IMG/VR virus record: IMGVR_UViG_2563366977_000001
Location: 1-64,000 of that record
Reading direction: 5' to 3' (one strand)
DNA length: 64,000 nt
From: a virus
Taxonomy: Duplodnaviria; Heunggongvirae; Uroviricota; Caudoviricetes
The notes below the pieces were generated by a model. That model was not told the DNA's origin. It ran no database searches and was given only the letters and a program-made list of their open reading frames with translations. Shown piece by piece: positions 3,272 to 63,778 of the stretch (position 1 is its first letter; every line of letters starts with the position of its first letter). Made by a program: the position numbers and the translations under genes.

Positions 3272-4702
3272 TTACGGATAAGTTATGCTGAACGTTGATG
3301 ATTTCACGTCCAGAAAAACAAAATCATTAAAGTACACAGCTTCTTTCATGTTCTGCGTAGCCACGTCATAAGACAGGAACATATCCAGCGATTCGATTAC
3401 TCGCCAGATATCTTTCACTTTGACCTGTGCATAACATTGCTGTGAGTCGTCATCACTCTGCAATAGCTGGCTAAATGACATGGAGTCTTTACCGAAGTTC
3501 TCCTCCAGTGCCGCTTTAATTGCAGTTAGCGCGTCATCCACCAGCACACTCTTTTTTACGATACCGGTAAATTTGATGTTGAACGGCTGTTCATTGGTGG
3601 CGACGTATTCAAACTTCTTATTCAGCTCATTAGGGATACTCTCAAGGGCTGATAATATCTCTGTTTTCAGAGCTTCCTGTGTTACGCCGGGCTTATGCCC
3701 ACAAAAGAAAATTTTGTTGATATTACGCACATCAAAGCCCGTTATTTTCTCCTGTAGCGCCTCCCCCCACACGTTAAGCCATGACGTGCCACTGACCACG
3801 TTCTGAATGAACTGGCGGTAATCACCGCCCCAAACAACCTGCTCATCGTAGGCCACATAATACTGCGCCCTGTTTCGGGTTTCCTCGGTAGTTTCCATGC
3901 CACCACCGCCAGAAATGATCGAATCGGTTTTTACTTCCAGTGATTCGACATACCCGGAGATGTTCCCTGCTGGTTCAAGTTTCTGGCCTTCAGCCAGCGT
4001 GTAATCACCGAGGCTTGCCATAATATCAATGCGTACCTGACTCCCTGCCGCTGGCATCATCCCCATTGATCCATCACCGAAGCGCACGCCGATCTGTTCT
4101 GTCGGCTTATAAACCAACACATAATGTTTACTGTTATCCCTGGACATGCGGAACAGGGGGTTATGTGTCCATTTTTCCTCGACACCATTAGTTATCACGA
4201 CAACTTCCAGGCTGGCGACTTCTGCTGTTAACTCACGGGATAGTAACAGCGTCAGGAATGGTGTTTCTTGCACCACGTCGAACGTTACGCTGACTGCTTC
4301 ATGCTGTTTTACTTCTATGCCGGATACTTTTTTACCAGCAGGGATAACAACACTACTGCTGGTTGCAATTGGTGTCTGGTCACTTGTCAGTAATTCAGCC
4401 CCGCCGGGTAGCGTAATATCCCTGTCGGTTTTGTTGGTGATGGAAACAGTGCCGTATGACGCATCGACCAAACGACCGACATAGCCACGGTCTTCCGCTG
4501 CCGCGAGAATACTTGCTCTACGCGTCGCGGTGGAAATGAATCCTTCTGTAAGTGCACGGCTTGCAAATGTACGCGCAATATAAACAATCTGCGCGCCCAA
4601 AACGGACTGCATTTGAATAAACTGGCTGTTTACAAATCGCGCCCACCAGGGGTTTTCGTTCAGCTTGGCATTAAACTTGTCCAGTAATTCGGTAATACTC
4701 AC
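3272..4702 (-). CDS. baseplate J-like protein
   Basis: Track ORF, 476 aa; size and position between the gp25-like gene and the gpI-like gene; overlaps its upstream neighbour by 4 nt. Confidence 0.45.
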   Translation of the reverse strand: MSITELLDKFNAKLNENPWWARFVNSQFIQMQSVLGAQIVYIARTFASRALTEGFISTATRRASILAAAEDRGYVGRLVDASYGTVSITNKTDRDITLPGGAELLTSDQTPIATSSSVVIPAGKKVSGIEVKQHEAVSVTFDVVQETPFLTLLLSRELTAEVASLEVVVITNGVEEKWTHNPLFRMSRDNSKHYVLVYKPTEQIGVRFGDGSMGMMPAAGSQVRIDIMASLGDYTLAEGQKLEPAGNISGYVESLEVKTDSIISGGGGMETTEETRNRAQYYVAYDEQVVWGGDYRQFIQNVVSGTSWLNVWGEALQEKITGFDVRNINKIFFCGHKPGVTQEALKTEILSALESIPNELNKKFEYVATNEQPFNIKFTGIVKKSVLVDDALTAIKAALEENFGKDSMSFSQLLQSDDDSQQCYAQVKVKDIWRVIESLDMFLSYDVATQNMKEAVYFNDFVFLDVKSSTFSITYP

Positions 4703-5073
4703 GCTGTATCTCCGCTATCTTTCTGCATAACAACATTCACAGTGCCTCCTTTTGCCTGGAAGCTAATTAGTAACTGGTCTTCCGAGACAGCCGAGCAGCG
4801 GATCGCCTGGAGTCCAAGTCCTGGCAAGTCCTGCTGTAGCTTTGTCATCATTCGCGCTTCAATTGCCACTTCAACAATGTGTGACGTATCAGAACCGAAG
4901 GGTTCGTGTTTGAACTCCTCCATCGGATTCCCCCATGACGGCAATCCGTAAACGCTGCCATTTGGTGTCCGTAGCCATTCATCGAGTCGGGCTATCCAGG
5001 CGTTTGTGTCGCCTTCAGCGATCACCACCCCGCTCTCGTTTGTCTGAAGGCGGGCATCAATCTCATAAAGCAT
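4699..5073 (-). CDS. baseplate wedge protein, GPW/gp25-like
   Basis: Track ORF, 124 aa; small protein immediately downstream of the tape-measure-like gene, typical gp25/W size and position. Confidence 0.4.
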   Translation of the reverse strand: MLYEIDARLQTNESGVVIAEGDTNAWIARLDEWLRTPNGSVYGLPSWGNPMEEFKHEPFGSDTSHIVEVAIEARMMTKLQQDLPGLGLQAIRCSAVSEDQLLISFQAKGGTVNVVMQKDSGDTA

Positions 5074-5078
5074 CGGTC

Positions 5079-8000
5079 TTAATCCTCCAGTAATTTGTCA
5101 AGAGATGGGTCATTGATAGTCGTGCTGGCACGCTGACGAGGTTGTGGTTGTGATGTGTTCACAACTTTGTCCTGATCGCCTTTGCGGTTGTCTTTGCTTA
5201 CGCCAAGAATCTCTTTAAGAACGGAATAAACGTTCTCCAGTGCTTTCAACATAGCCGGATCGTTATTTGCGGTATCTGTTGTTAGCATCTGCCTTATTCC
5301 GCTTCGTGCGAGGTCCGTGACGGTTGGTAGCTGAGGAGGCATTGCAAGGAACGGTTCTTTAGCAGCCACGCCCGAAGCAAACAGGCTTTGATTGATTGCG
5401 CCAGTCGTGTCCCTGATCGTATCCGCCGTTTTCTGTATGCCACCATTCAGCCAACCGCCAACACTCCTTGTTAACGGACTAATAGCGCGAGCAACATCGG
5501 TATTCTGTCCAGAGGACTGCAATACAAAGTCATTTAACATTCCGGTGCTATCAATACCGCCCACAAGTCGCGAGAGGTTATCTCCAACGGCGGGGAGGAC
5601 GGCGGAGCCTACCTGGTTAAGCCCTGACACAGTTGAATCAAATAGCGAGCCAAAGAAGCCCCTGTCCTCACCTTCAACCACCTTGTAGCCGTTGTCGTAA
5701 ATCTGCACACCCGCCGGTGTCGATGTGGCACGCTTCTCGCTGATGGTTGCCGGACTCTCCGGAAGCAGGTCAATGGTTTCTGTATCGCGGTTAACTTTGC
5801 GCTTTTGCTGTATAGCCGTAGTGATATCGGCGATCTGTTCCGCCTTCTGGAAACTAAAGTTTTTGCCCGTTGCTCTGGATGTTTTTTCAACAAGGAACTT
5901 ATCCAATTGCTTGGCTTTTGCTGCTAACGAGGACATCTCTTCCGGAGAACTGACAGGGCCGAGATTTAGCCCCATATTCGGATCTCCCCCAACTATCCCG
6001 GCGATGACGCCCCCAACACCGGCTGCACTCATTAACCGCTCCGTCAATCCGGCTGCGGCGGAAGAATTGCCACTAGCTTTCGCGTGGCTGATCGCTTGGG
6101 CATTTTCCTGTTGAGCTGCCTTCGGTTTTTTAGCTGCCTGTGCGTGTTGAACCACGTCAGTAGGGCTAGGCATTACAGCCTGGGCTACGCTTGACGCAGG
6201 AATAGCAGAAGATGAGCCGTTGGCGTATTTGACTTTGCTACCGACACTATATTGGGAGTTGCGAGCGATTAGAGGACCGCCCTTTTCCTTCTGGATTTTA
6301 TTAATGTGTTCCAGCGTTTCATCATTGAATTGCCCTTCCCAACGCCCAGTTTTAGCGTTGAATGAACCAAGAGCTGTTTTGATGAAATTGTTGTTAACCG
6401 CCGGGTTACCCCCCTCCTTCGTCGCAATAGCGCGAACAAGGTGCGTCATAACTTCAGGGTTGCTAACGTCTATTTTATCGTTGGGGGACACCCCTAGATA
6501 TTTGCTGACGTTTTCAATGTACTGATTGGTGTTGTTCTCTGTTGGTGGTGCCCATTTTGAAATGATGCTGGATACTGTTTGCAGCTTCTGATACCCGGCG
6601 GCAGCACTTGTACCGTTGTAATAACTCGATACCTGGTTTGCCAATGCCCGAATCCCTTCTTCGGGCGTATTAAACCGCGCAAAACGCTGTTCGCCTTTCG
6701 CGTTCGGCGCTTCCAGTACCGCCCCCTCCTGATTTGCAAAAACCAGGTTCCCCAGGTTGTTATTCCGGTAATTCCTGTTCTTGGCGTTGCTTCCGCCTAT
6801 ATTCAGATCAGCCGTTATTGTATTTTTTTCAGGCGCTTTAAATTCGTCTGGCGATTTGTAGCCGTGTTCACCCACGCCATCCTCACCTCTGCGCCCGCCC
6901 TGTAGCTGTCGGGCCAGATCATTAATTGCGGCTACCGTTTGCTTGGTGCCATCTTCAACGGCTTTCTTAACCTGCGCAGTGCCTTCGCTGCTTGATGAGA
7001 ACGATTCTTTTAGGCTGCTGAATGCGTTCTTCGACGCGTCGATAGAACTATTTATGCCGCGAGCGATATTGCTGGTATCAAGACTCTGAAGTTTTTGTCC
7101 GACACCTTCAAAGCCTAGCGCGGACATCCCCTCGCCAATGAGGTTAGCCGCTCCCGTCACCAGACCGCCCATATCCAGGACGTTAGCAGCGGCGTAGGCG
7201 CTCTTTTGCTGTGTTGTAACGTCCTGCCCTTCCTTCAGGTTATAAGTCGCCCTCTGCGCTTCTGTGTCGCTGTAGCCGTCTACGGCATCATAACCAACCA
7301 TAGCCACCTGGCCGATGACTGGAATCGCCCTGAATCCGGCCCTTGCGGCAACACCTCCGGCAGCTTTGAGAGCCACTTTTCCAGCTTCTTTTTTCGCGAT
7401 GTTTTCACCAGTGGCAACGGCAACCTTACCCGCCTCTTTCCTGGTAAGGCTTTCCCCAGCGGAAGTTGCCGCTTTACCAGCGTCTTTCCCTGCCGCTCCA
7501 CCAGCCGCCGTTTTGGCTACGCTTTCTTCAGTGACCTTACCTGCTCTGGTTTTAACTGAAGATTTATCACCCGATGATTTTGGTGAGGTACTACCCTCGT
7601 TCCCACCAGCTTTTTTTGTCCGATTTTTTTCCTCGCCCGCACTGTTGTTTTTGCCTGGCTGATTTTTTTTCCCCTCTTTGCCTTCCTGACTCCTGCCCGT
7701 CTCAGTAGGTTTGCTGGTGTTTTTTCCCTTCTTGCCCTTGTTTTCTTTACTGTCTCCAGTGCGGCCCGTGTTGCCACCACGTGCACTGCTACGACCGCGT
7801 GTAGGGGATATTTTGGTACGTAATCTGCCACCGCCGAGGAGGTCGCTCAGTTTTAGCCCACTCTCCTGCGACTTTCGTAGCTTCCGGATCTCTTCGGATA
7901 CAGTTTCCAGCTCATCAATTATCTGGCTGTCGTTGCGTTGAAGAACTTTCGTTTGTTCTTCGATCGCACGCACAGATTTTTCTTTAACGGCTTCAGTAAA

Positions 8001-54044: not shown

Positions 54045-54070
54045 GAAGCCCGCTCAACCAAGCGGGCTTC
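54045..54070. terminator. bidirectional terminator hairpin between doc and the convergent gene
   Basis: gaagcccgctcaaccaagcgggcttc, with a T-run on the minus-strand side. Confidence 0.5.
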
Positions 54071-54121: not shown

Positions 54122-54919
54122 TTAGGCGTCAGCATCAGCATCCTCTGCTTCCACATCTGCCGCGACTTCATCGGACTGTTCTTCTTTGGCCTGTTCTGCA
54201 ATCGCCGCACGGCATTTCGCCCTGGCTGTAGCGATGGCCTCAACTTTCACGTCATTAGGAATACTTGAGGTGACATACATATCCAGTTCTTCAGCACGGA
54301 ATACTGTTTTGTCCAGGAATTCATCAAGCATCCAGGTTAAGGAAAAGTCGCAGGAAATCAGCTCTACTTCGCCTTCCGCGCCGTTTGGGAAATGGATAAA
54401 CATCTGCTTGCCCAGGCCAAGCACGCGACAAGCAGCCATCATTACTGCAAGTTCCAGGTCTTTGTTTTCACCTGCTACTGGTTGATCCACACCAGTAATA
54501 GTGCCGTTCAAATGGATATTATATGGCTGATATTTAGAGATGCGTTCTACACGCCATGTGCCGGTTAAGGTTCCCTGGCGGAAGATTATTGGCGTGACCG
54601 AAAGCGACAGCTCTCGAATGAGTTGTTGCGCTATGGCTGGGTCATACAGGGGATCTAACGCGATGCATCCATAAGATTGCGCCAGTTCAAACAATTCTTC
54701 CTGTGTGCACTGAATGCCTCTTGCCGTAATAAAACGTCTGACTCCCGTTTTCCCATCACGCCAGATAGCAATGCCATTCTCACTATCTAACTCTTCGTCT
54801 AAGCCCAGGTATGTAAGGATGGTTCGCTCAATGGTAGCAAAGGGCAGGGACATATCATCGTTTACATCCACCAGCAGGCCATTACGCAGGCGATATTGAA
54901 TGTTTTTGGTATTTTCCAC
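54122..54919 (-). CDS. hypothetical protein with acidic C-terminal tail
   Basis: Track ORF, 265 aa. Confidence 0.3.
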   Translation of the reverse strand: MENTKNIQYRLRNGLLVDVNDDMSLPFATIERTILTYLGLDEELDSENGIAIWRDGKTGVRRFITARGIQCTQEELFELAQSYGCIALDPLYDPAIAQQLIRELSLSVTPIIFRQGTLTGTWRVERISKYQPYNIHLNGTITGVDQPVAGENKDLELAVMMAACRVLGLGKQMFIHFPNGAEGEVELISCDFSLTWMLDEFLDKTVFRAEELDMYVTSSIPNDVKVEAIATARAKCRAAIAEQAKEEQSDEVAADVEAEDADADA

Positions 54920-54925
54920 GTTAAA

Positions 54926-55561
54926 TCACTCCACAACAAACCAGTCACAGGCCAGTAAATCATCCACAGACGGCAACCAAACGCTGTCCATATTTTGTGC
55001 ATCTTTCAATACAAAATGGTCACCATAAGGAACGTGAATGCCGTGTAAATTGACGCTTCCAGCGAGAACTAACCAGCAGAATTGCTTTTCGCCTTTCCAC
55101 TCGCGTCGGGCAACTTTCTTGCCTTCCTTCAACCACATTAGCGCGTCAGAGAAGTCGGCTGCTTCAAGGTCGATTTCTTCTTGTGTGGTAATGATGCCAC
55201 CGGCAGCAATAGTTACGTCCCTGGCTGTAATGAATGTCACCCCATTGTGACCTTCAATGCTGAGCGATACCCCATTTTCGGAGGCGTCGTTAACCCGGCT
55301 ATAGCATTTTTCAAATGCTTTCTCTGGCACATAGACCAGATAGCCATTTTCAGCAGTGACGAGATATCCTCCTATTTGCGGTCGGAATTTTTCCAAGAAC
55401 ACACCATCAACACGAAGCGTCATTCCTTTTGGCTCAACGACTTCGATACTGCCAAAAATGGGCGCATAAGCTTCGCCGACAATAACAATATCTTTGATTT
55501 TCGATGCCCGAATGATGCTGTGGCATTTGTATTTGGGGAACACCTGAAAAGTGCTGACCAT
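54926..55561 (-). CDS. protein with C-terminal DUF2829-like (Tad2-like) domain
   Basis: C-terminal ...FSDALMWLKEGKKVARREW...WLPSVDDLLACDWFVVE matches the DUF2829 pattern as I recall it (F.EAL.ALK.GKKV.R..W ... DLLA.DWE.V). Confidence 0.45.
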   Translation of the reverse strand: MVSTFQVFPKYKCHSIIRASKIKDIVIVGEAYAPIFGSIEVVEPKGMTLRVDGVFLEKFRPQIGGYLVTAENGYLVYVPEKAFEKCYSRVNDASENGVSLSIEGHNGVTFITARDVTIAAGGIITTQEEIDLEAADFSDALMWLKEGKKVARREWKGEKQFCWLVLAGSVNLHGIHVPYGDHFVLKDAQNMDSVWLPSVDDLLACDWFVVE

Positions 55562-55575
55562 AATCCTTCCTCTAC

Positions 55576-56070
55576 TTAAAACTTTGCGTACTGAAGCGGT
55601 GTACGCTTGATTTCAACGCGGTCTTCCGATGTGCTACCAAAGCCACCAGCGCCTCGCTCTGTTTCATCGAGTTCATCAACTTCTACCAGCGATACCGGTT
55701 CAACACGCTCAAAAATGCCTTGCATGACCGCCATTCCTGGCTTGAGGCAAACGCCTTCACCACCGGGATCTGTAATCAGTTTTGCCATGATTTCACCGCG
55801 ATAATCGGAGTCGATAATTCCTACGCAGTTAGCCAGGCGCGTATGCTTTTTGCAGCCCAATCCGGAACGAGGATAAAGTTTCAGACACCAGCCAGGAGGG
55901 ATCGCCATAGCGAGGCCGGTATGCACCCACCAGCTTGAGGAAATAGCGCCGTTGCTATCGATACCCGGCGTTATTTCAACAGCAACAAAATCCATCGCCG
56001 CCGATCCGGCGGTGGCGTAAACGGGGAGTTTTGCCGCCGGATGAAGGCGTTTCACTTTCACGTTAATCAT
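55576..56070 (-). CDS. dut: dUTP diphosphatase (dUTPase)
   Basis: YATAGSAAMD, PRSGLG and GIIDSDYRGE motifs, colinear with E. coli Dut. Confidence 0.85.
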   Translation of the reverse strand: MINVKVKRLHPAAKLPVYATAGSAAMDFVAVEITPGIDSNGAISSSWWVHTGLAMAIPPGWCLKLYPRSGLGCKKHTRLANCVGIIDSDYRGEIMAKLITDPGGEGVCLKPGMAVMQGIFERVEPVSLVEVDELDETERGAGGFGSTSEDRVEIKRTPLQYAKF

Positions 56071-57997: not shown

Positions 57998-58149
57998 GAA
58001 ACTATTAAACCTCTATATACAGATAACGCTACGTGAAAAATAGAAAACTGACAGGGTAGTTATAAGTTAATTTTCAAAATTCAAGCCTTTGATTCGAGGC
58101 ATGATTTTTCATCCTTGTCAATACTACCTGTTTACTGGAGATTATAGCC

Positions 58150-58181
58150 TAACTTTAAATAATGCCAATTATTTAAAGTTA
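58150..58181. other. rox-like site-specific recombination site (14-bp inverted repeats, 4-bp spacer)
   Basis: taactttaaataat gcca attatttaaagtta, about 150 bp upstream of the recombinase start codon. Confidence 0.8.
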
Positions 58182-58378
58182 GAAATCAGGACTTTTTTCC
58201 CAAAAAAAACACCGACCAGATCACTTCGCAAATCCGTCAGCCATGCGGTAGCTGTTCCTGGTTACATTTTCTAATAGGAACAATCAAAAAAAAGCGGTTT
58301 TATCCTTTACTCACCTTGTTATTCAGCATAAATTTGTCACAGGACTTTTATGTTAGAAAACTAAATCGAGTAGGAATA

Positions 58379-59416
58379 ATGAGTAAGAAGTCGATCGAGA
58401 ATGAGTACAAACGGTTCCTGCAAACCGCTGAACGGTGGAAAGAGCTGGTGGTCGCAAACTCTGTTTTCCATGATACCAGTTATGTTGGCGAGGAATTTCG
58501 CCATGTTGCATTAACACATGATCCGGCTGTATTAGAAGAAGCTGAAAAATGCATAGCCGAATGGAAAGCCTTTGTTGATCTGTGTCGCAAGGATGATGAC
58601 AAAGCCTCAAACATTGTTGAGTCGGTTTATTTACCGATCCCATTCATTGTTGAGGATACTAATCAGAGTACGCATATCGTTATGCAAAGCGCAACCACAA
58701 CGAGAACATTTACGCGCGAAGACCTGCTGAAAAAATACGATAAAACTATAAAGAAAAGCATGAAAAACAGGATATTTTCACAGGTTGTCGGTGCGCTTGA
58801 AGAAGAACGCAGATTCTTCGCCGCTGAACGTGAGGGCGAGGTATACCGCGCAAGAAAAGAAGGTTATACCGATGTGGTGATTACCACCAATATCGAGGGC
58901 AACAATGGACTTTCACGCTTCCGAGTGGGTGCGCACGGTGCGCTGATCTTTGCAAGAAAAGCAAACACAGAGATTCCCGTTGTTAACAACGTTGGTGAGC
59001 GCCGTACCCTTACCATTTACACTGGCATTAAACCGCTTCCGTGCGGACTTCTCGGCGAATTTGACCTTTATCGGGTTCGTGATCTGGAAAAGCAGCAGCC
59101 AAGCTATGTCGTGAAGTCATATATCCTGAGAAACATTGATATCCGCAATCAGAGTTTAAAAAACAAATCAGATAAAATGCTGGCCGAAGCCGATCCAGCC
59201 ATACACCAGATCGTTAGCCGGAAAATTCAAGAGGCTAAAGATGCAATGGCAAGGCTGGATAAAATGGACCTGGAACTACTGGAAGTTATGATTGCCTCCG
59301 GCGATGACCTGACAGGCATCCGCCTTACTGAAGCCAGGAAAAAATACGGTAAAAGCGTTGAAGAACGCTATGGGTACACATTCACACAAACGATGTACGC
59401 GGCAAAACTCTGGTAA
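58379..59416 (+). CDS. hypothetical protein between rox and pacB (position of P1 c1; no recognisable similarity)
   Basis: Start MSKKSIENEY after AGGAA; operator-like tgttagaaaac about 20 bp upstream. Confidence 0.35.
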   Translation: MSKKSIENEYKRFLQTAERWKELVVANSVFHDTSYVGEEFRHVALTHDPAVLEEAEKCIAEWKAFVDLCRKDDDKASNIVESVYLPIPFIVEDTNQSTHIVMQSATTTRTFTREDLLKKYDKTIKKSMKNRIFSQVVGALEEERRFFAAEREGEVYRARKEGYTDVVITTNIEGNNGLSRFRVGAHGALIFARKANTEIPVVNNVGERRTLTIYTGIKPLPCGLLGEFDLYRVRDLEKQQPSYVVKSYILRNIDIRNQSLKNKSDKMLAEADPAIHQIVSRKIQEAKDAMARLDKMDLELLEVMIASGDDLTGIRLTEARKKYGKSVEERYGYTFTQTMYAAKLW

Positions 59417-60962: not shown

Positions 60963-62326
60963 TAGTCATCCTCCGGCTGGTCTATCACAATCTCGTCATC
61001 TACAGCATCAAAACCGGTATCCCCCGCGTCATAATCACCGTAGATATCAGCCGTGGCGGAAGGGTCTATATTCAGGTCTTCATCATTGGCCTCAAATTCA
61101 CCGGCTTTACGTTCTCCGTTCCGGTCGTAATCCCCCATCCCAAGCCTATCAACGATTTTCGCTACTTCAGCCCGGCGTTGTGCAAGCCATTGTGGGAGTC
61201 CAGCTTGTTGCTCGGCAAACTGCTTCGCCTCTTTATCCAGTTGCTCATCATCAACATCGTTAACGTCAGAAACCGGAGGCTCCAGAAGTGAGATCGCTTT
61301 TGCCGCTCGTGCCGCCAGGATAGCTGGGACACTGACGCCCTGCCGCTCGATATATTCAGCTACGCCTATATCGTCCAGCTCCTCGCGCTCACGCATACGT
61401 ATAGCGGCGGCGATAACCCTGGCGGCGCGTGCGTCAGCGCCAATGCGATACTCAATCTCCTTGCCACGCTGCTCGGCCTGCAGGCGGGCAATCGCCAGTT
61501 TTTCTCTGGCCTCAGCCTCCCTGAATGCCTGCTGACGCGCGCCCTGCGCAAGTTTTTCATCCCCCTGGCGTAGCTTCTGCTCGGTCTGGTAGATGGCTGC
61601 CAACCTACTGATAAAGTCATTCATGTAGTAGGCCGCATCGCTTATTAGGCCGAGAAGACGCTGCCCTGGGTGCATCCCCTCTGGCTGTGTATCGCCGAGG
61701 GCGTCAATCTCTTCCTGTAGTCGCTCCGCTTCCTGGTCAACGATGGCCTGATACTGAATTGCTCGTTCCTGCGCCATCTGTATCGCAAGTCGTAAATGTT
61801 CAGTCGCGCCGTTCTTCATCATCTCACGGGCGACGTTGGTGGCAGGCAAAGTGGCGCTTTGAGCTGATGAGTCAGGGATCATTTGCAATGATCCCTTGTT
61901 TCGTTGGGCTTTTTCGCTGCTTTTAGGGATCATTTCTCCCATTTCATCACAAAATGATCCCTTCACATCCTTGTGTATCCTGTTGTTATTACTTGGTTTT
62001 TCTTTGTGATCCGCATTTTGTTTTTGCGGCATGGCGCGGAACTGTCCACCAGCTAACGATTTGTCAGTTTTTGTAAATTCTGTGCTTTTATCAGCCTTTT
62101 TTTGCTCTTTTTTTGAGCCGGTGGCGCTGCTTTTTGCGCGCTGTTTTGTACTTTTCCCGGCAGCCTTAGCTTTCGCCTTAACCTCATTTTTTTTCATATT
62201 GAGATGCTTTCTGGCGGTGTTAAAGCTGAGGTCATGCTGCTCGCAATATTCTTTTATGGTGATCCCGGTTTCTTCTCTTAACTCCAGGAACTTAGCTCGA
62301 TGCGCCTCCCAGTTAATTAACGTCAT
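60962..62326 (-). CDS. pacA: terminase small subunit / pac-recognition protein (PacA-like)
   Basis: N-terminal HTH-like ITIKEYCEQHDLSFNTARKHL and basic region; the gene contains a cluster of GATC hexamers resembling the P1 pac site. Confidence 0.55.
   Translation of the reverse strand: MTLINWEAHRAKFLELREETGITIKEYCEQHDLSFNTARKHLNMKKNEVKAKAKAAGKSTKQRAKSSATGSKKEQKKADKSTEFTKTDKSLAGGQFRAMPQKQNADHKEKPSNNNRIHKDVKGSFCDEMGEMIPKSSEKAQRNKGSLQMIPDSSAQSATLPATNVAREMMKNGATEHLRLAIQMAQERAIQYQAIVDQEAERLQEEIDALGDTQPEGMHPGQRLLGLISDAAYYMNDFISRLAAIYQTEQKLRQGDEKLAQGARQQAFREAEAREKLAIARLQAEQRGKEIEYRIGADARAARVIAAAIRMREREELDDIGVAEYIERQGVSVPAILAARAAKAISLLEPPVSDVNDVDDEQLDKEAKQFAEQQAGLPQWLAQRRAEVAKIVDRLGMGDYDRNGERKAGEFEANDEDLNIDPSATADIYGDYDAGDTGFDAVDDEIVIDQPEDD
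61872..62264. other. candidate pac site: cluster of TGATCC/GGATCA (Dam-site) hexamers inside pacA
   Basis: GATC at about 61875, 61890, 61928, 61956, 62006 and 62261; the first four form two inverted pairs within about 85 bp. Confidence 0.45.
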
Positions 62327-62715
62327 AGGGAAGCCTCACGTTTTTTCACAGCGGCGTTCCATAGCTGGTTAGTCATCGCCACCAACTGACGCTGCTCCTT
62401 TCGTAATTGAGCTTCTATCTTTCGGTTGGTGTTTTTCACCAACAGCCGACCGAATTCAGGAGTGCGCCCGCGCACCTTGAACTGGTATCCATTCAGGCCA
62501 TGTAACCAATATTTCCGGGGGTATACGCGGTCGTCTATTTCGCAAATGGCACGACTGGAACGAACAAAAAAACGTATGATGTTATTTACGTTTACGCGCG
62601 ACACATGAAGGTGAGGATATTGTGCTTTTGCACGGCTGGTGATTTCGGTGACCGTCAGATAGCAGTCAGCCCTGATCATGATATCCGCTATTTCGGCGCT
62701 ACTGATTTGCTCCAT
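62323..62715 (-). CDS. small regulatory-like protein in the position of P1 lpa (late promoter activator)
   Basis: 130 aa directly upstream of pacA with a 4-nt overlap; operator-like tattagaaaattaatattaatttactaa upstream at about 62793-62820. Synteny only. Confidence 0.3.
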   Translation of the reverse strand: MEQISSAEIADIMIRADCYLTVTEITSRAKAQYPHLHVSRVNVNNIIRFFVRSSRAICEIDDRVYPRKYWLHGLNGYQFKVRGRTPEFGRLLVKNTNRKIEAQLRKEQRQLVAMTNQLWNAAVKKREASL

Positions 62716-62822: not shown

Positions 62823-63206
62823 CTACCAGCGGGATAAACGAACAACATGCTTAACTTTTGCCTCCCACTTCCCTTTATGTTTGTTGATCACCGCCTGCGC
62901 CATCTTCAGACTGGCTTCAAAATCGGCTTTTCGACCACTATTGCCCACCAGCAACGCTCCGTCTATTTCGGGTAAGCATAAGTAATCCTGCTCGACGGTA
63001 AGCGGCATTGATGATGTAACCTGGCAGGCTTTCCATCTGAAGCGTATGCGCACACTCCTGACTGACATCACGACATAACCTGATATTGTGCTCTTGTGTC
63101 CGGCGTCTGTGCGTGTAGCCTTGCATGATGTTATCTTGCAGGTGATGATGTCCCAACCAATGTGCATCGCATCCTCAATGCGTAATTTAGTAGCCTCGTA
63201 CATCAA
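62823..63206 (-). CDS. hypothetical protein
   Basis: Track ORF, 127 aa. Confidence 0.3.
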   Translation of the reverse strand: MMYEATKLRIEDAMHIGWDIITCKITSCKATRTDAGHKSTISGYVVMSVRSVRIRFRWKACQVTSSMPLTVEQDYLCLPEIDGALLVGNSGRKADFEASLKMAQAVINKHKGKWEAKVKHVVRLSRW

Positions 63207-63778
63207 AAAACCTCCCAGTCAGTAGCGATAATATCAACACCAGTTGCAAACCAGTCTGTCTGCGCCTGTAAATCCCCATTCATCATTACCAGGCGAGGCA
63301 TAACCATCACATCACAACCTTCAACAATATCGAATGCCTCTTCCGGCAGGAATTCGACGAGCTTTTCTTTGCTACCAACACTGCCACGGAGCATCGATAT
63401 ATAGCTCCCTTTAGGCCATGATGTTCGCCGGGCATCAAGCCCCTTCATCATCCAGTAAAAGGCCGATGAGAACGGGATGTTCTTTTTGGCGATGAGCACG
63501 TTATTCGCTTCTGTGTACTTCAGGAACTTAACTAACCTTACCATCGACTCGGATAACGCAATGTACGGCTCGTGATTGATTGCTGACACACTTACGCCGT
63601 GCAGTCCAACACTTACCACTGTCATATCACCGTTCTGTGCGGTTTCGATGTTGACGCCTTTACGAACTAACGCTGCATAAAGCTCCTCGCGCTTTTGCGT
63701 CCAGCATTCTCGTCGCCCTATAAAGTCACTCAAAACGAGATCATCTTCTGAATACGCGTTATCGTTCGCCGTTAACAT
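63203..63778 (-). CDS. protein with C-terminal DUF2829-like domain (second paralogue)
   Basis: ...FSSAFYWMMKGLDARRTSW ... DIIATDWEVF matches the same pattern as the 54926..55561 protein. Confidence 0.35.
   Translation of the reverse strand: MLTANDNAYSEDDLVLSDFIGRRECWTQKREELYAALVRKGVNIETAQNGDMTVVSVGLHGVSVSAINHEPYIALSESMVRLVKFLKYTEANNVLIAKKNIPFSSAFYWMMKGLDARRTSWPKGSYISMLRGSVGSKEKLVEFLPEEAFDIVEGCDVMVMPRLVMMNGDLQAQTDWFATGVDIIATDWEVF

Follow-up and report, generated by a model that had tools for sequence, protein, structure and literature searches.

Two Tad2-family proteins of a D6-type phage-plasmid as candidate signal sponges, one of them joined to a recurrent Dec-like OB module

The characterised members of the Tad2 family are phage sponges, homotetramers that hold nucleotide-derived immune signals in pockets between the protomers. 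The homotetrameric sponge SPO1 Tad2 (gp34.65; 8sme, 8smf, 8smg) contacts 1''-3' glycocyclic ADP-ribose (gcADPR) via W25, N26, W73 and D79, with S76 and T78 assisting, and its helix alpha1 is a tetramerisation element. The contacts of HgmTad2 (AcrIIA7) are W21/N22/G23 and W87/S90/T92/D93, and binding is lost in the W21A/N22A and S90A/T92A/D93A mutants. HgmTad2 and SptTad2 use an insertion of 35-41 residues for cyclic dinucleotide binding. ModTad2 (MoTad2) from a Myroides odoratus prophage (9eib, 8v3e), a single domain of about 89 aa, binds histidine-ADP-ribose (His-ADPR) and the cyclic mononucleotides cUMP and cCMP. When 18 Tad2 homologues were assayed against seven defence systems, CBASS, Pycsar and Thoeris types I, II and IV each had one or more inhibitors among them. 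Here we describe two genes in a stretch of 64,000 nucleotides (the window) that forms positions 1 to 64,000 of the virus record IMGVR_UViG_2563366977_000001, a P1-family phage-plasmid of the D6 type. They encode protein 1 (211 aa; 54926..55561, minus strand) and protein 2 (191 aa; 63203..63778, minus strand). We consider it fairly probable that both are sponges of the Tad2 family, protein 1 being an oligomeric sponge for ADP-ribose signals made by Toll/interleukin-1 receptor (TIR) domains and protein 2 a sponge for a different signal.

Both open reading frames (ORFs) lie exactly where a preliminary description of this DNA had placed them, and its suggestion that each ends in a DUF2829-like domain was confirmed by a profile search. 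Residues 136-210 of protein 1 match the family PF11195 ('Tad2-like', formerly DUF2829) with E 2.9e-18 and 66.6 bits, and residues 103-190 of protein 2 with E 4.4e-10 and 40.4 bits. The curated cutoff is 25 bits, and the 73 positions of the profile are essentially fully covered by both matches. Two divergent relatives of protein 2 (P0222 and P0223) also pass, with 36.9 and 35.8 bits. In a plain sequence search against Tad2 proteins of solved structure, protein 1 finds ModTad2 (9eib, E 7.8e-11; 8v3e, E 1e-10) and SPO1 Tad2 (8sme, E 5e-6), and protein 2 has a weak match to SptTad2 (8wjd, E 0.54). Neither NCBIfam nor PADLOC had a match for the two proteins or for four neighbours. A hidden Markov model of the domain, run against all six-frame ORFs, found exactly two copies in the window and no third. 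Both proteins are thus members of the Tad2 family, and both carry the extra N-terminal regions noted earlier, which measure about 133 aa (protein 1) and about 99 aa (protein 2). The preliminary description also called them paralogous. This stands at the level of the domain, where hhalign aligns the C-terminal 80 columns and nothing else (21% identity, E 5.9e-4, probability 29%). It does not stand for the whole proteins, since BLASTP of one against the other found nothing significant and the N-terminal regions are unrelated; homology between these regions was rejected on the same two comparisons. Judged from their sequences, the two proteins are not close paralogues, and their common origin would go no further than membership of an ancient domain family.

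The predicted structures have the Tad2-like fold that the earlier description expected. The AlphaFold model of the protein 1 monomer, built from an alignment of 34 sequences, consists of two confident domains, residues 1-92 and 134-211 (predicted local distance difference test, pLDDT, about 85-91), with a low-confidence beta-rich linker between them. Its best 24 matches in a Foldseek search of the PDB are all Tad2 chains (ModTad2, SPO1 Tad2, HgmTad2/AcrIIA7 and SptTad2), and the C-terminal domain has template modelling (TM) scores of 0.77-0.90 normalised to ModTad2 or SPO1 Tad2 (9eib, E 2e-7; 8v3e, target-normalised TM 0.90). The family alignment of protein 2 is shallow and was supplemented with trimmed Tad2 domains (alignment A3), which biases the model towards the Tad2 fold. 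The resulting model has a pLDDT of 70-92 in the core of the domain and 37-45 in its insertion, and its top 17 PDB matches are all Tad2 chains (TM 0.58-0.82; best SptTad2 8wjd, E 1.6e-4). As the seeded alignment favours this fold, the match is consistent with the Pfam assignment and is not independent proof of it. The segment equivalent to the tetramerisation helix alpha1 of SPO1 Tad2 is nearly invariant in the relatives of protein 1, which partly reflects the word-indexed search.

The Tad2 domain of protein 1 (residues 134-211; 54929..55162, minus strand) is closest to ModTad2 among the solved structures (38-41% identity). The two share the W-x-G and W-x-P-S-V-x-D motifs; however, ModTad2 has WNG where protein 1 has WKG, and protein 1 has a shorter insertion and an additional N-terminal module and linker. 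In the sequence alignment the equivalents of the pocket residues are W155, K156, G157, W195, S198, D200 and D201 in protein 1 and W121, P122, W176, T179, V181 and D182 in the divergent Tad2-like domain of protein 2 (residues 100-191; 63206..63481, minus strand). Protein 1 keeps four of the five core positions (W155, W195, S198 and D201, equivalent to W25, W73, S76 and D79 of SPO1 Tad2), that is, the Trp/Trp/Ser/Asp core of the pocket for ADP-ribose signals, with K156 in place of the Asn. Protein 2 keeps three of the five (W121, W176 and D182), the Asn being replaced by P122 and the Ser by T179. SPO1 Tad2 has the same fold and pocket framework as both proteins, but it has no N-terminal modules.

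These positions are conserved beyond the window. The two Trp, the Ser and the Asp are invariant in 34 relatives of protein 1, and the pattern F-S-A-W-G-R-W...W...D...DW is kept in all 17 Tad2 segments of the protein 1 type and in the six sequences of the protein 2 family in alignment A3. The latter family, followed down to 40% identity, shows no variation at W121, G124, W176 and D182 or in the terminal ATDW, and position 122 is P, P or R, never N. This invariance of the W/W/D core and of the domain framework suggests purifying selection on the pocket region of protein 2. Most members of the protein 1 family have WNG...VGD, whereas the 82-aa allele of the domain, to which the window copy belongs, always has WKG...VDD or VAD. 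In the window allele, two positions of ligand contact are therefore changed in a linked manner (Asn to Lys and Gly/Thr to Asp).

The insertion between beta2 and beta5 comprises about 17 residues in protein 1, as compared with 24 in SPO1 Tad2 and 35-41 in HgmTad2 and SptTad2. In protein 2 it is longer than in SPO1 Tad2, and the near-gapless alignment with SptTad2 over about 96 residues places this protein in the long-insertion class. Indeed, HgmTad2 and SptTad2 (8kbi-8kbm, 8wjd) are its best matches both in sequence and in fold; protein 2 differs from them by the additional N-terminal half of 99 aa. The residues R31, S47, F70 and N85, used by HgmTad2 for cyclic dinucleotides, have no reliable mapping onto protein 2, as the insertion is the low-confidence part of the model. 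The two Tad2-like proteins of this one genome, one with a short and one with a long insertion, differ in their pockets, which suggests that they divide the signals between them. As Tad2 homologues bind very different signals, the ligand is not readable from family membership, and no assignment was reached from the residues either: the literature examined names no contact residues of ModTad2, and the specificity of the family is too variable. The earlier proposal that the two proteins are candidate anti-defence sponges is thus retained on the strength of family, fold, gene context and the aromatic and acidic pocket core present in both, but, given the range of signals bound within the family, it does not extend to gcADPR as the assumed ligand.

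The following mechanism is proposed. The Tad2 domains of protein 1 would form a ligand-binding tetramer, outside which the N-terminal modules would pair up. Upon infection or induction, this complex would absorb an ADP-ribose-type signal made by TIR proteins (3' cyclic ADP-ribose (3'cADPR), His-ADPR or N7-cyclic ADP-ribose), and removal of the signal would blunt immunity of the Thoeris type. Protein 2, which is divergent, specific to the D6 lineage and altered in its pocket, probably has another signal as its ligand, perhaps held in the second pocket, located in the insertion domain, where cyclic nucleotides are bound by some Tad2 homologues.

At the N-terminus of protein 1 (residues 1-92; 55286..55561, minus strand; pLDDT about 85-90) lies a small beta domain of the oligonucleotide/oligosaccharide-binding (OB) type, a module with two kinds of known relatives. 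The first is the capsid-binding protein Dec of phage L (6e3c), the best fold match in the PDB outside Tad2 (Foldseek E 4e-3, target-normalised TM 0.48). A search with the single sequence finds Dec with E 1.1e-3 and about 50% identity over the core GGYL...AFE..Y, and a profile of 17 sequences (A4), which also draws on stand-alone proteins of Ralstonia, Klebsiella and E. coli phages, matches residues 14-92 of Dec with E 7.5e-6. The second relative is RyR Tad, a gcADPR sponge described in June 2026 (gp68 of Pectobacterium phage vB_PatP_CB1), whose N-terminal domain is seen by crystallography as a domain-swapped dimer that exchanges beta1. The OB profile aligns with residues 1-86 of gp68 with an hhalign probability of 92.4% and E 5.2e-7, and the motifs L.QY.(C/S)HK.V.A and GYLVVY...SP..F.AG are common to both. 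By this comparison protein 1 and RyR Tad have one and the same N-terminal module. The layout is also the same, an N-terminal module followed by a C-terminal domain, which in RyR Tad binds gcADPR. However, in RyR Tad the C-terminal domain is all-helical and resembles RyR Repeat12 rather than Tad2, the protein is dimeric, and a beta-rich linker is absent.

A search of a collection of 5.8 billion proteins with the OB profile yielded 242 members, mostly stand-alone proteins of 85-100 aa. Among the 120 matches listed, 14 also contain PF21825 (Sequestin, a family of 3'cADPR sponges discovered via fusion to Tad2 and Acb4), four contain PF24729 (the Acb2/Tad1 hairpin domain) and three contain PF11195. 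Together with RyR Tad, the module is thus found joined to four different sponge domains, and by the reasoning that uncovered Sequestin it becomes a candidate new player in anti-defence. It is possible, though unlikely in our estimation, that it is a widespread and so far undescribed functional partner of phage sponges, either as a ligand-binding family of its own, which would make protein 1 two-pronged, or as a dimerising or tethering adaptor, of common descent with capsid decoration proteins, on at least four unrelated sponge domains. Dimerisation, in gp68, is the sole property of the module that has been demonstrated. A dimeric module on a tetrameric sponge has a precedent, as Acb4-Sequestin is a tetramer by size-exclusion chromatography with multi-angle light scattering and Tad2-Sequestin has been modelled as a homotetramer.

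In one version of this idea the OB module is itself a ligand-binding sponge, so that protein 1 would resemble Acb4-Tad2 or Tad2-Sequestin and the stand-alone proteins would be an unrecognised sponge family. The size of most of them is typical of sponges, and dimerisation could form pockets at the interface. The Acb4-Tad2, Tad2-Sequestin and Acb4-Sequestin fusions demonstrate that Tad2 domains work in multi-domain proteins and that the partner of a sponge can be a sponge. In these fusions, however, both partners are demonstrated sponges, whereas residues 1-86 of gp68 (gp68_N), the only OB module for which a test is reported, had no apparent activity against type I Thoeris on their own, and RyR Tad has its gcADPR pocket in the C-terminal domain. 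The genomic positions of the stand-alone copies are divided. In a metagenomic contig of 66 kb from JGI (L012, positions 3319-5445), genes for a 91-aa Tad2-like protein, a stand-alone 85-aa OB protein and a PF13876 (Acb4-family) protein lie within about 2 kb, among small genes upstream of the terminase, in what looks like an anti-signalling island. On the other hand, the stand-alone gene lies between the portal and major head genes in Ralstonia phage GP4 and between the terminase and portal genes in another contig, and further copies are in uninformative locations. Taken together, we regard a sponge function of the module itself as improbable.

The relationship with Dec and the copies among head genes may be read differently, namely that protein 1 is a virion-associated, decoration-like protein. 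Its OB module would attach to the capsid and its linker would make up a trimeric stalk as in Dec, so that the particle would display the Tad2-like domain, with an extracellular or structural role. The homology with Dec extends over the whole OB domain. The linker (residues 93-133; 55163..55285, minus strand) is beta-rich and was not modelled in the monomer (pLDDT below 50). The C-terminal region of Dec folds only in the trimer, and the linker of protein 1 resembles it. In addition, one relative of protein 1 (P0050) carries a tail-fibre repeat. However, Dec is a capsid-binding trimer encoded together with structural genes, whereas protein 1 carries a domain of a sponge family and its gene does not lie with head genes: it is found in non-structural clusters in the window, in D6 and in the element L008 (with cre-like and dUTPase genes) and in SJ46 (between ssb and isaA). 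Moreover, in RyR Tad the same module belongs to a soluble, dimeric intracellular sponge, it is repeatedly fused to four families of intracellular sponges, many OB-Tad2 fusions have no linker (e.g. the short protein P0105), and a trimer would not create the inter-protomer pockets of a Tad2 tetramer. This makes a virion role of protein 1 very improbable, and an intracellular sponge remains the preferred reading.

Several further observations concern the same region. Where the linker is present, it belongs to one of at least two interchangeable sequence types ('VSLSIEGHNGVTF...' and 'TTVIITDDNGVMI...'). We also compared the OB module with Lockin and rejected this identification: Lockin, a hexameric cog, is absent from the INPHARED phages, several of which encode the OB module, and the best PDB match of the module is Dec. 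In P0074-P0093 the Tad2-like domains, often followed by Sequestin at the C-terminus, are preceded by another recurrent module. This one has about 70 aa, starts with 'MSNSEMVLVPRA...', shows no relationship to the OB module and belongs to no Pfam family. Five OB proteins of 150-183 aa have extra regions without a Pfam family, N-terminal in P0117 and C-terminal in P0136, P0141, P0155 and P0191. If the OB module marks sponges, these extensions are candidates for further partner domains.

Protein 2 is an orthologue of D6 orf6 (92% identity), and among the sequenced phages only D6 has it. Its N-terminal half (residues 1-99; 63482..63778, minus strand) is an orphan. It has no Pfam or NCBIfam match, and an exhaustive HMMER search of 1.84 billion representatives gave five matches, the full-length ones having the same 191-aa architecture. 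The low-confidence model of this half (pLDDT 26-66) has the order alpha-beta-beta-beta-alpha. Weak Foldseek matches (E above 0.04) to a double-stranded RNA-binding domain were seen, and with a model of pLDDT below 66 this fold is not claimed.

For protein 2 above all, it may be asked whether the Tad2-like fold has been reused and one or both proteins have nothing to do with signal sequestration, acting as an anti-CRISPR of the AcrIIA7 type, a transcriptional regulator or a type I toxin, or having lost binding in the case of protein 2. DUF2829 was first linked to AcrIIA7; however, the anti-CRISPR activity of AcrIIA7/HgmTad2 could not be reproduced. PHROG 643 ('transcriptional regulator') has a weak match to the C-terminal domain of protein 1 (E 3.6e-6). 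In many plasmids RefSeq names protein 2 'MW1434 family type I TA system toxin', and near-identical copies of the gene (99.5-99.7% at the nucleotide level) in the RefSeq plasmids H66-H73 stand under two product names, the other one, used in newer records, being 'Thoeris anti-defense Tad2 family protein'. Type I toxins are short hydrophobic peptides. Protein 2, by contrast, has 191 aa and no long hydrophobic stretch by eye, and NCBIfam release 20, the current one, gives no match at E <=0.01; as a soluble protein it does not suit the toxin label. Protein 2 does lack the canonical pocket Asn and Ser, and several of its database copies (P0100-P0103) are truncated or frameshifted after residue ~120, which may reflect either gene decay in some plasmids or assembly errors. 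The invariance of its W/W/D core and framework, described above, speaks against this reading. We see only a slight chance that either protein has such an unrelated function.

The genes around protein 1 follow a conserved order. The right-end 12 kb of the window has about 80% nucleotide identity with phage D6, and the window encodes Phd/Doc, HumD, a Cre-like recombinase, a C1-like repressor (58316-59416), PacA/PacB and Lpa. The order of a cre-like gene, two small ORFs, a dUTPase gene, a Tad2-like gene and an isaA-like gene is the same in the window, in D6 and in the distant D6/P7-like element L008. The dUTPase gene directly upstream (55576..56070, minus strand; PF00692, E 3.5e-13; phrog_135), already recognised in the preliminary description, adjoins the protein 1 gene as in D6 and L008. 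The start codon of protein 1 is preceded at 5-6 nt by a strong Shine-Dalgarno box (GAGGAAGGA), which comes right after the stop of the dUTPase gene. The D6 copy of protein 1 has no OB module. The isaA-like gene follows after a gap of 6 nt (54122..54919, minus strand; phrog_2326; annotated in D6 as 'similar to P1 gene isaA'), and such a gene is directly 3' of the Tad2-like gene in the window, D6, SJ46 and L008, so that a functional link within this pair is possible. The isaA-like product has no relative in Pfam, NCBIfam, PADLOC or among the solved structures of the PDB; it has an acidic C-terminal tail. In an unrelated phage contig, a two-domain homologue of protein 1 (P0060, 40% identical) lies directly after an Acb2/Tad1-hairpin gene.

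Comparison of P1 and SJ46 suggests that the Tad2-like gene is a clean presence/absence cassette. Phage P1 (NC_005856, 21569-22531; L015) and SJ46 (L003) have in common an annotated upstream extension of 56 codons, 'VVQTPTKARTRK...SREKTM', which is followed by the Tad2-like gene in SJ46 and directly by IsaA in P1. As P1 runs from the common upstream sequence straight into isaA, it is without the cassette; its IS1 lies downstream of isaA and not between ssb and isaA. The annotated 5' extensions themselves are probably over-called starts. In the P1 record the ssb operon carries the C1 operator Ossb and is annotated as C1-repressed, so that the SJ46 copy would be early and repressor-controlled if SJ46 retains Ossb.

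The protein 2 gene also has a strong Shine-Dalgarno box, AAGGAG, 5-6 nt ahead of its ATG. Its stop is overlapped by a D6 orf5-like gene (62823..63206, minus strand; phrog_7004), after which comes lpa (62323-62715; PF25716, E 3.7e-50), and D6 has the same order. As to expression signals, an 11/12 match to a sigma-70-like promoter (58141..58168, minus strand) lies upstream of the first gene of the co-directional cluster, which is cre-like, and a terminator-like hairpin (54048..54063, minus strand) lies just beyond the isaA-like gene. Both come from consensus scans that are not enriched over shuffled sequences (8 promoters found against 12.5 expected, and 11 terminators against 10.9) and are weak hints. 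The P1 operator consensus (ATTGCTCTAATAAATTT, up to three mismatches) is matched nowhere in the window, even though the latter encodes a C1-like repressor; this consensus is that of P1, and presumably the D6-type repressor recognises a different operator sequence.

A number of points weigh against the two proteins being sponges as proposed. Firstly, the phosphate-contacting Asn of WNG (N26 of SPO1 Tad2) is Lys in protein 1 and Pro in protein 2, and the Thr (T78) is Asp and Val, respectively. Secondly, both proteins have about twice the length of the Tad2 proteins of about 90-104 aa with solved structures, although long and fused Tad2-like proteins are common. Thirdly, the model of protein 2 is of moderate confidence (mean pLDDT 59) and was built on an alignment to which Tad2 domains had been added. 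Fourthly, the OB module has a homologue in a capsid decoration protein, and in some phages it occurs in the head or packaging modules. Furthermore, the scans of the window gave neither a P1-type operator nor a convincing promoter that would point to early expression in this element. Finally, the literature searched yielded no experiments, be they assays of binding, oligomerisation or anti-defence, with either protein or an OB-Tad2 fusion.

The Tad2 assignment of both genes is routine. It is already annotated and is not new, and the presence of two copies in one genome, which the preliminary description had singled out, is real but less notable for that reason. The protein identical to protein 1 in NCBI (P0001) is named 'DUF2829 domain-containing protein', and one UniRef cluster for protein 1 has the name 'Thoeris anti-defense Tad2 family protein'. 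In a 2025 preprint, DefenseFinder reported 'Tad2 AcrIIA7 (anti-Thoeris)' in 93% of the D6-group and 56% of the P1-group phage-plasmids. Both genes are thus ordinary members of a well-studied sponge family, whose presence here is unsurprising. What is added here is the identity of the OB module and its recurrent association with sponges, the differing pocket and insertion types of the two proteins, and the linked pocket substitutions of the window allele. The substitutions, the contrast between the two proteins and the recurrence of the module were not found in the literature searched, and all of them are testable.

Clinical E. coli, Shigella and Salmonella commonly carry phage-plasmids of the P1 and D6 types, and P1 is in standard use for transduction. 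To know which signalling defences such elements neutralise helps to explain their host range and stability. Among complete E. coli genomes, the protein 1 gene is found in about 211 of 5,426, mostly as partial matches because of mosaicism, and the protein 2 gene in 94 of the same 5,426; both are almost always on plasmids.

The relatives of protein 1 of the E. coli type are mosaics. Types of N-terminal module, two types of linker and three types of C-terminal domain (82, 91 and 99 aa) occur in almost every combination, which argues for frequent recombination of this gene. The interchangeable alleles, with their two linked changes at contact positions, are natural material for mapping the specificity of Tad2. 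Between L008 and the window, the Tad2-like gene product has 40% identity and its isaA-like neighbour 53%, that is, the former diverges faster. Mosaicism together with faster divergence is what would be expected under arms-race selection.

Two rearranged relatives were also observed. The P0050 protein (306 aa) consists of an N-terminal tail-fibre repeat (PF03406, E 4.7e-19), a 5'-truncated OB module that begins at SASKIKNVV, the linker and a Tad2-like domain, and is probably a product of recombination with a tail-fibre gene. The other, P0064, is a single protein of 241 aa in which the dUTPase is joined to the Tad2-like domain, and it occurs in some phage-plasmids of E. coli (15 member sequences, 4 contigs). 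At the junction, where RGAGG is followed by ITTQQEEIDLE, the C-terminus of the dUTPase, the OB module and most of the linker have been lost, apparently through a deletion that joined the two neighbouring genes at a GAGG/AGG microhomology.

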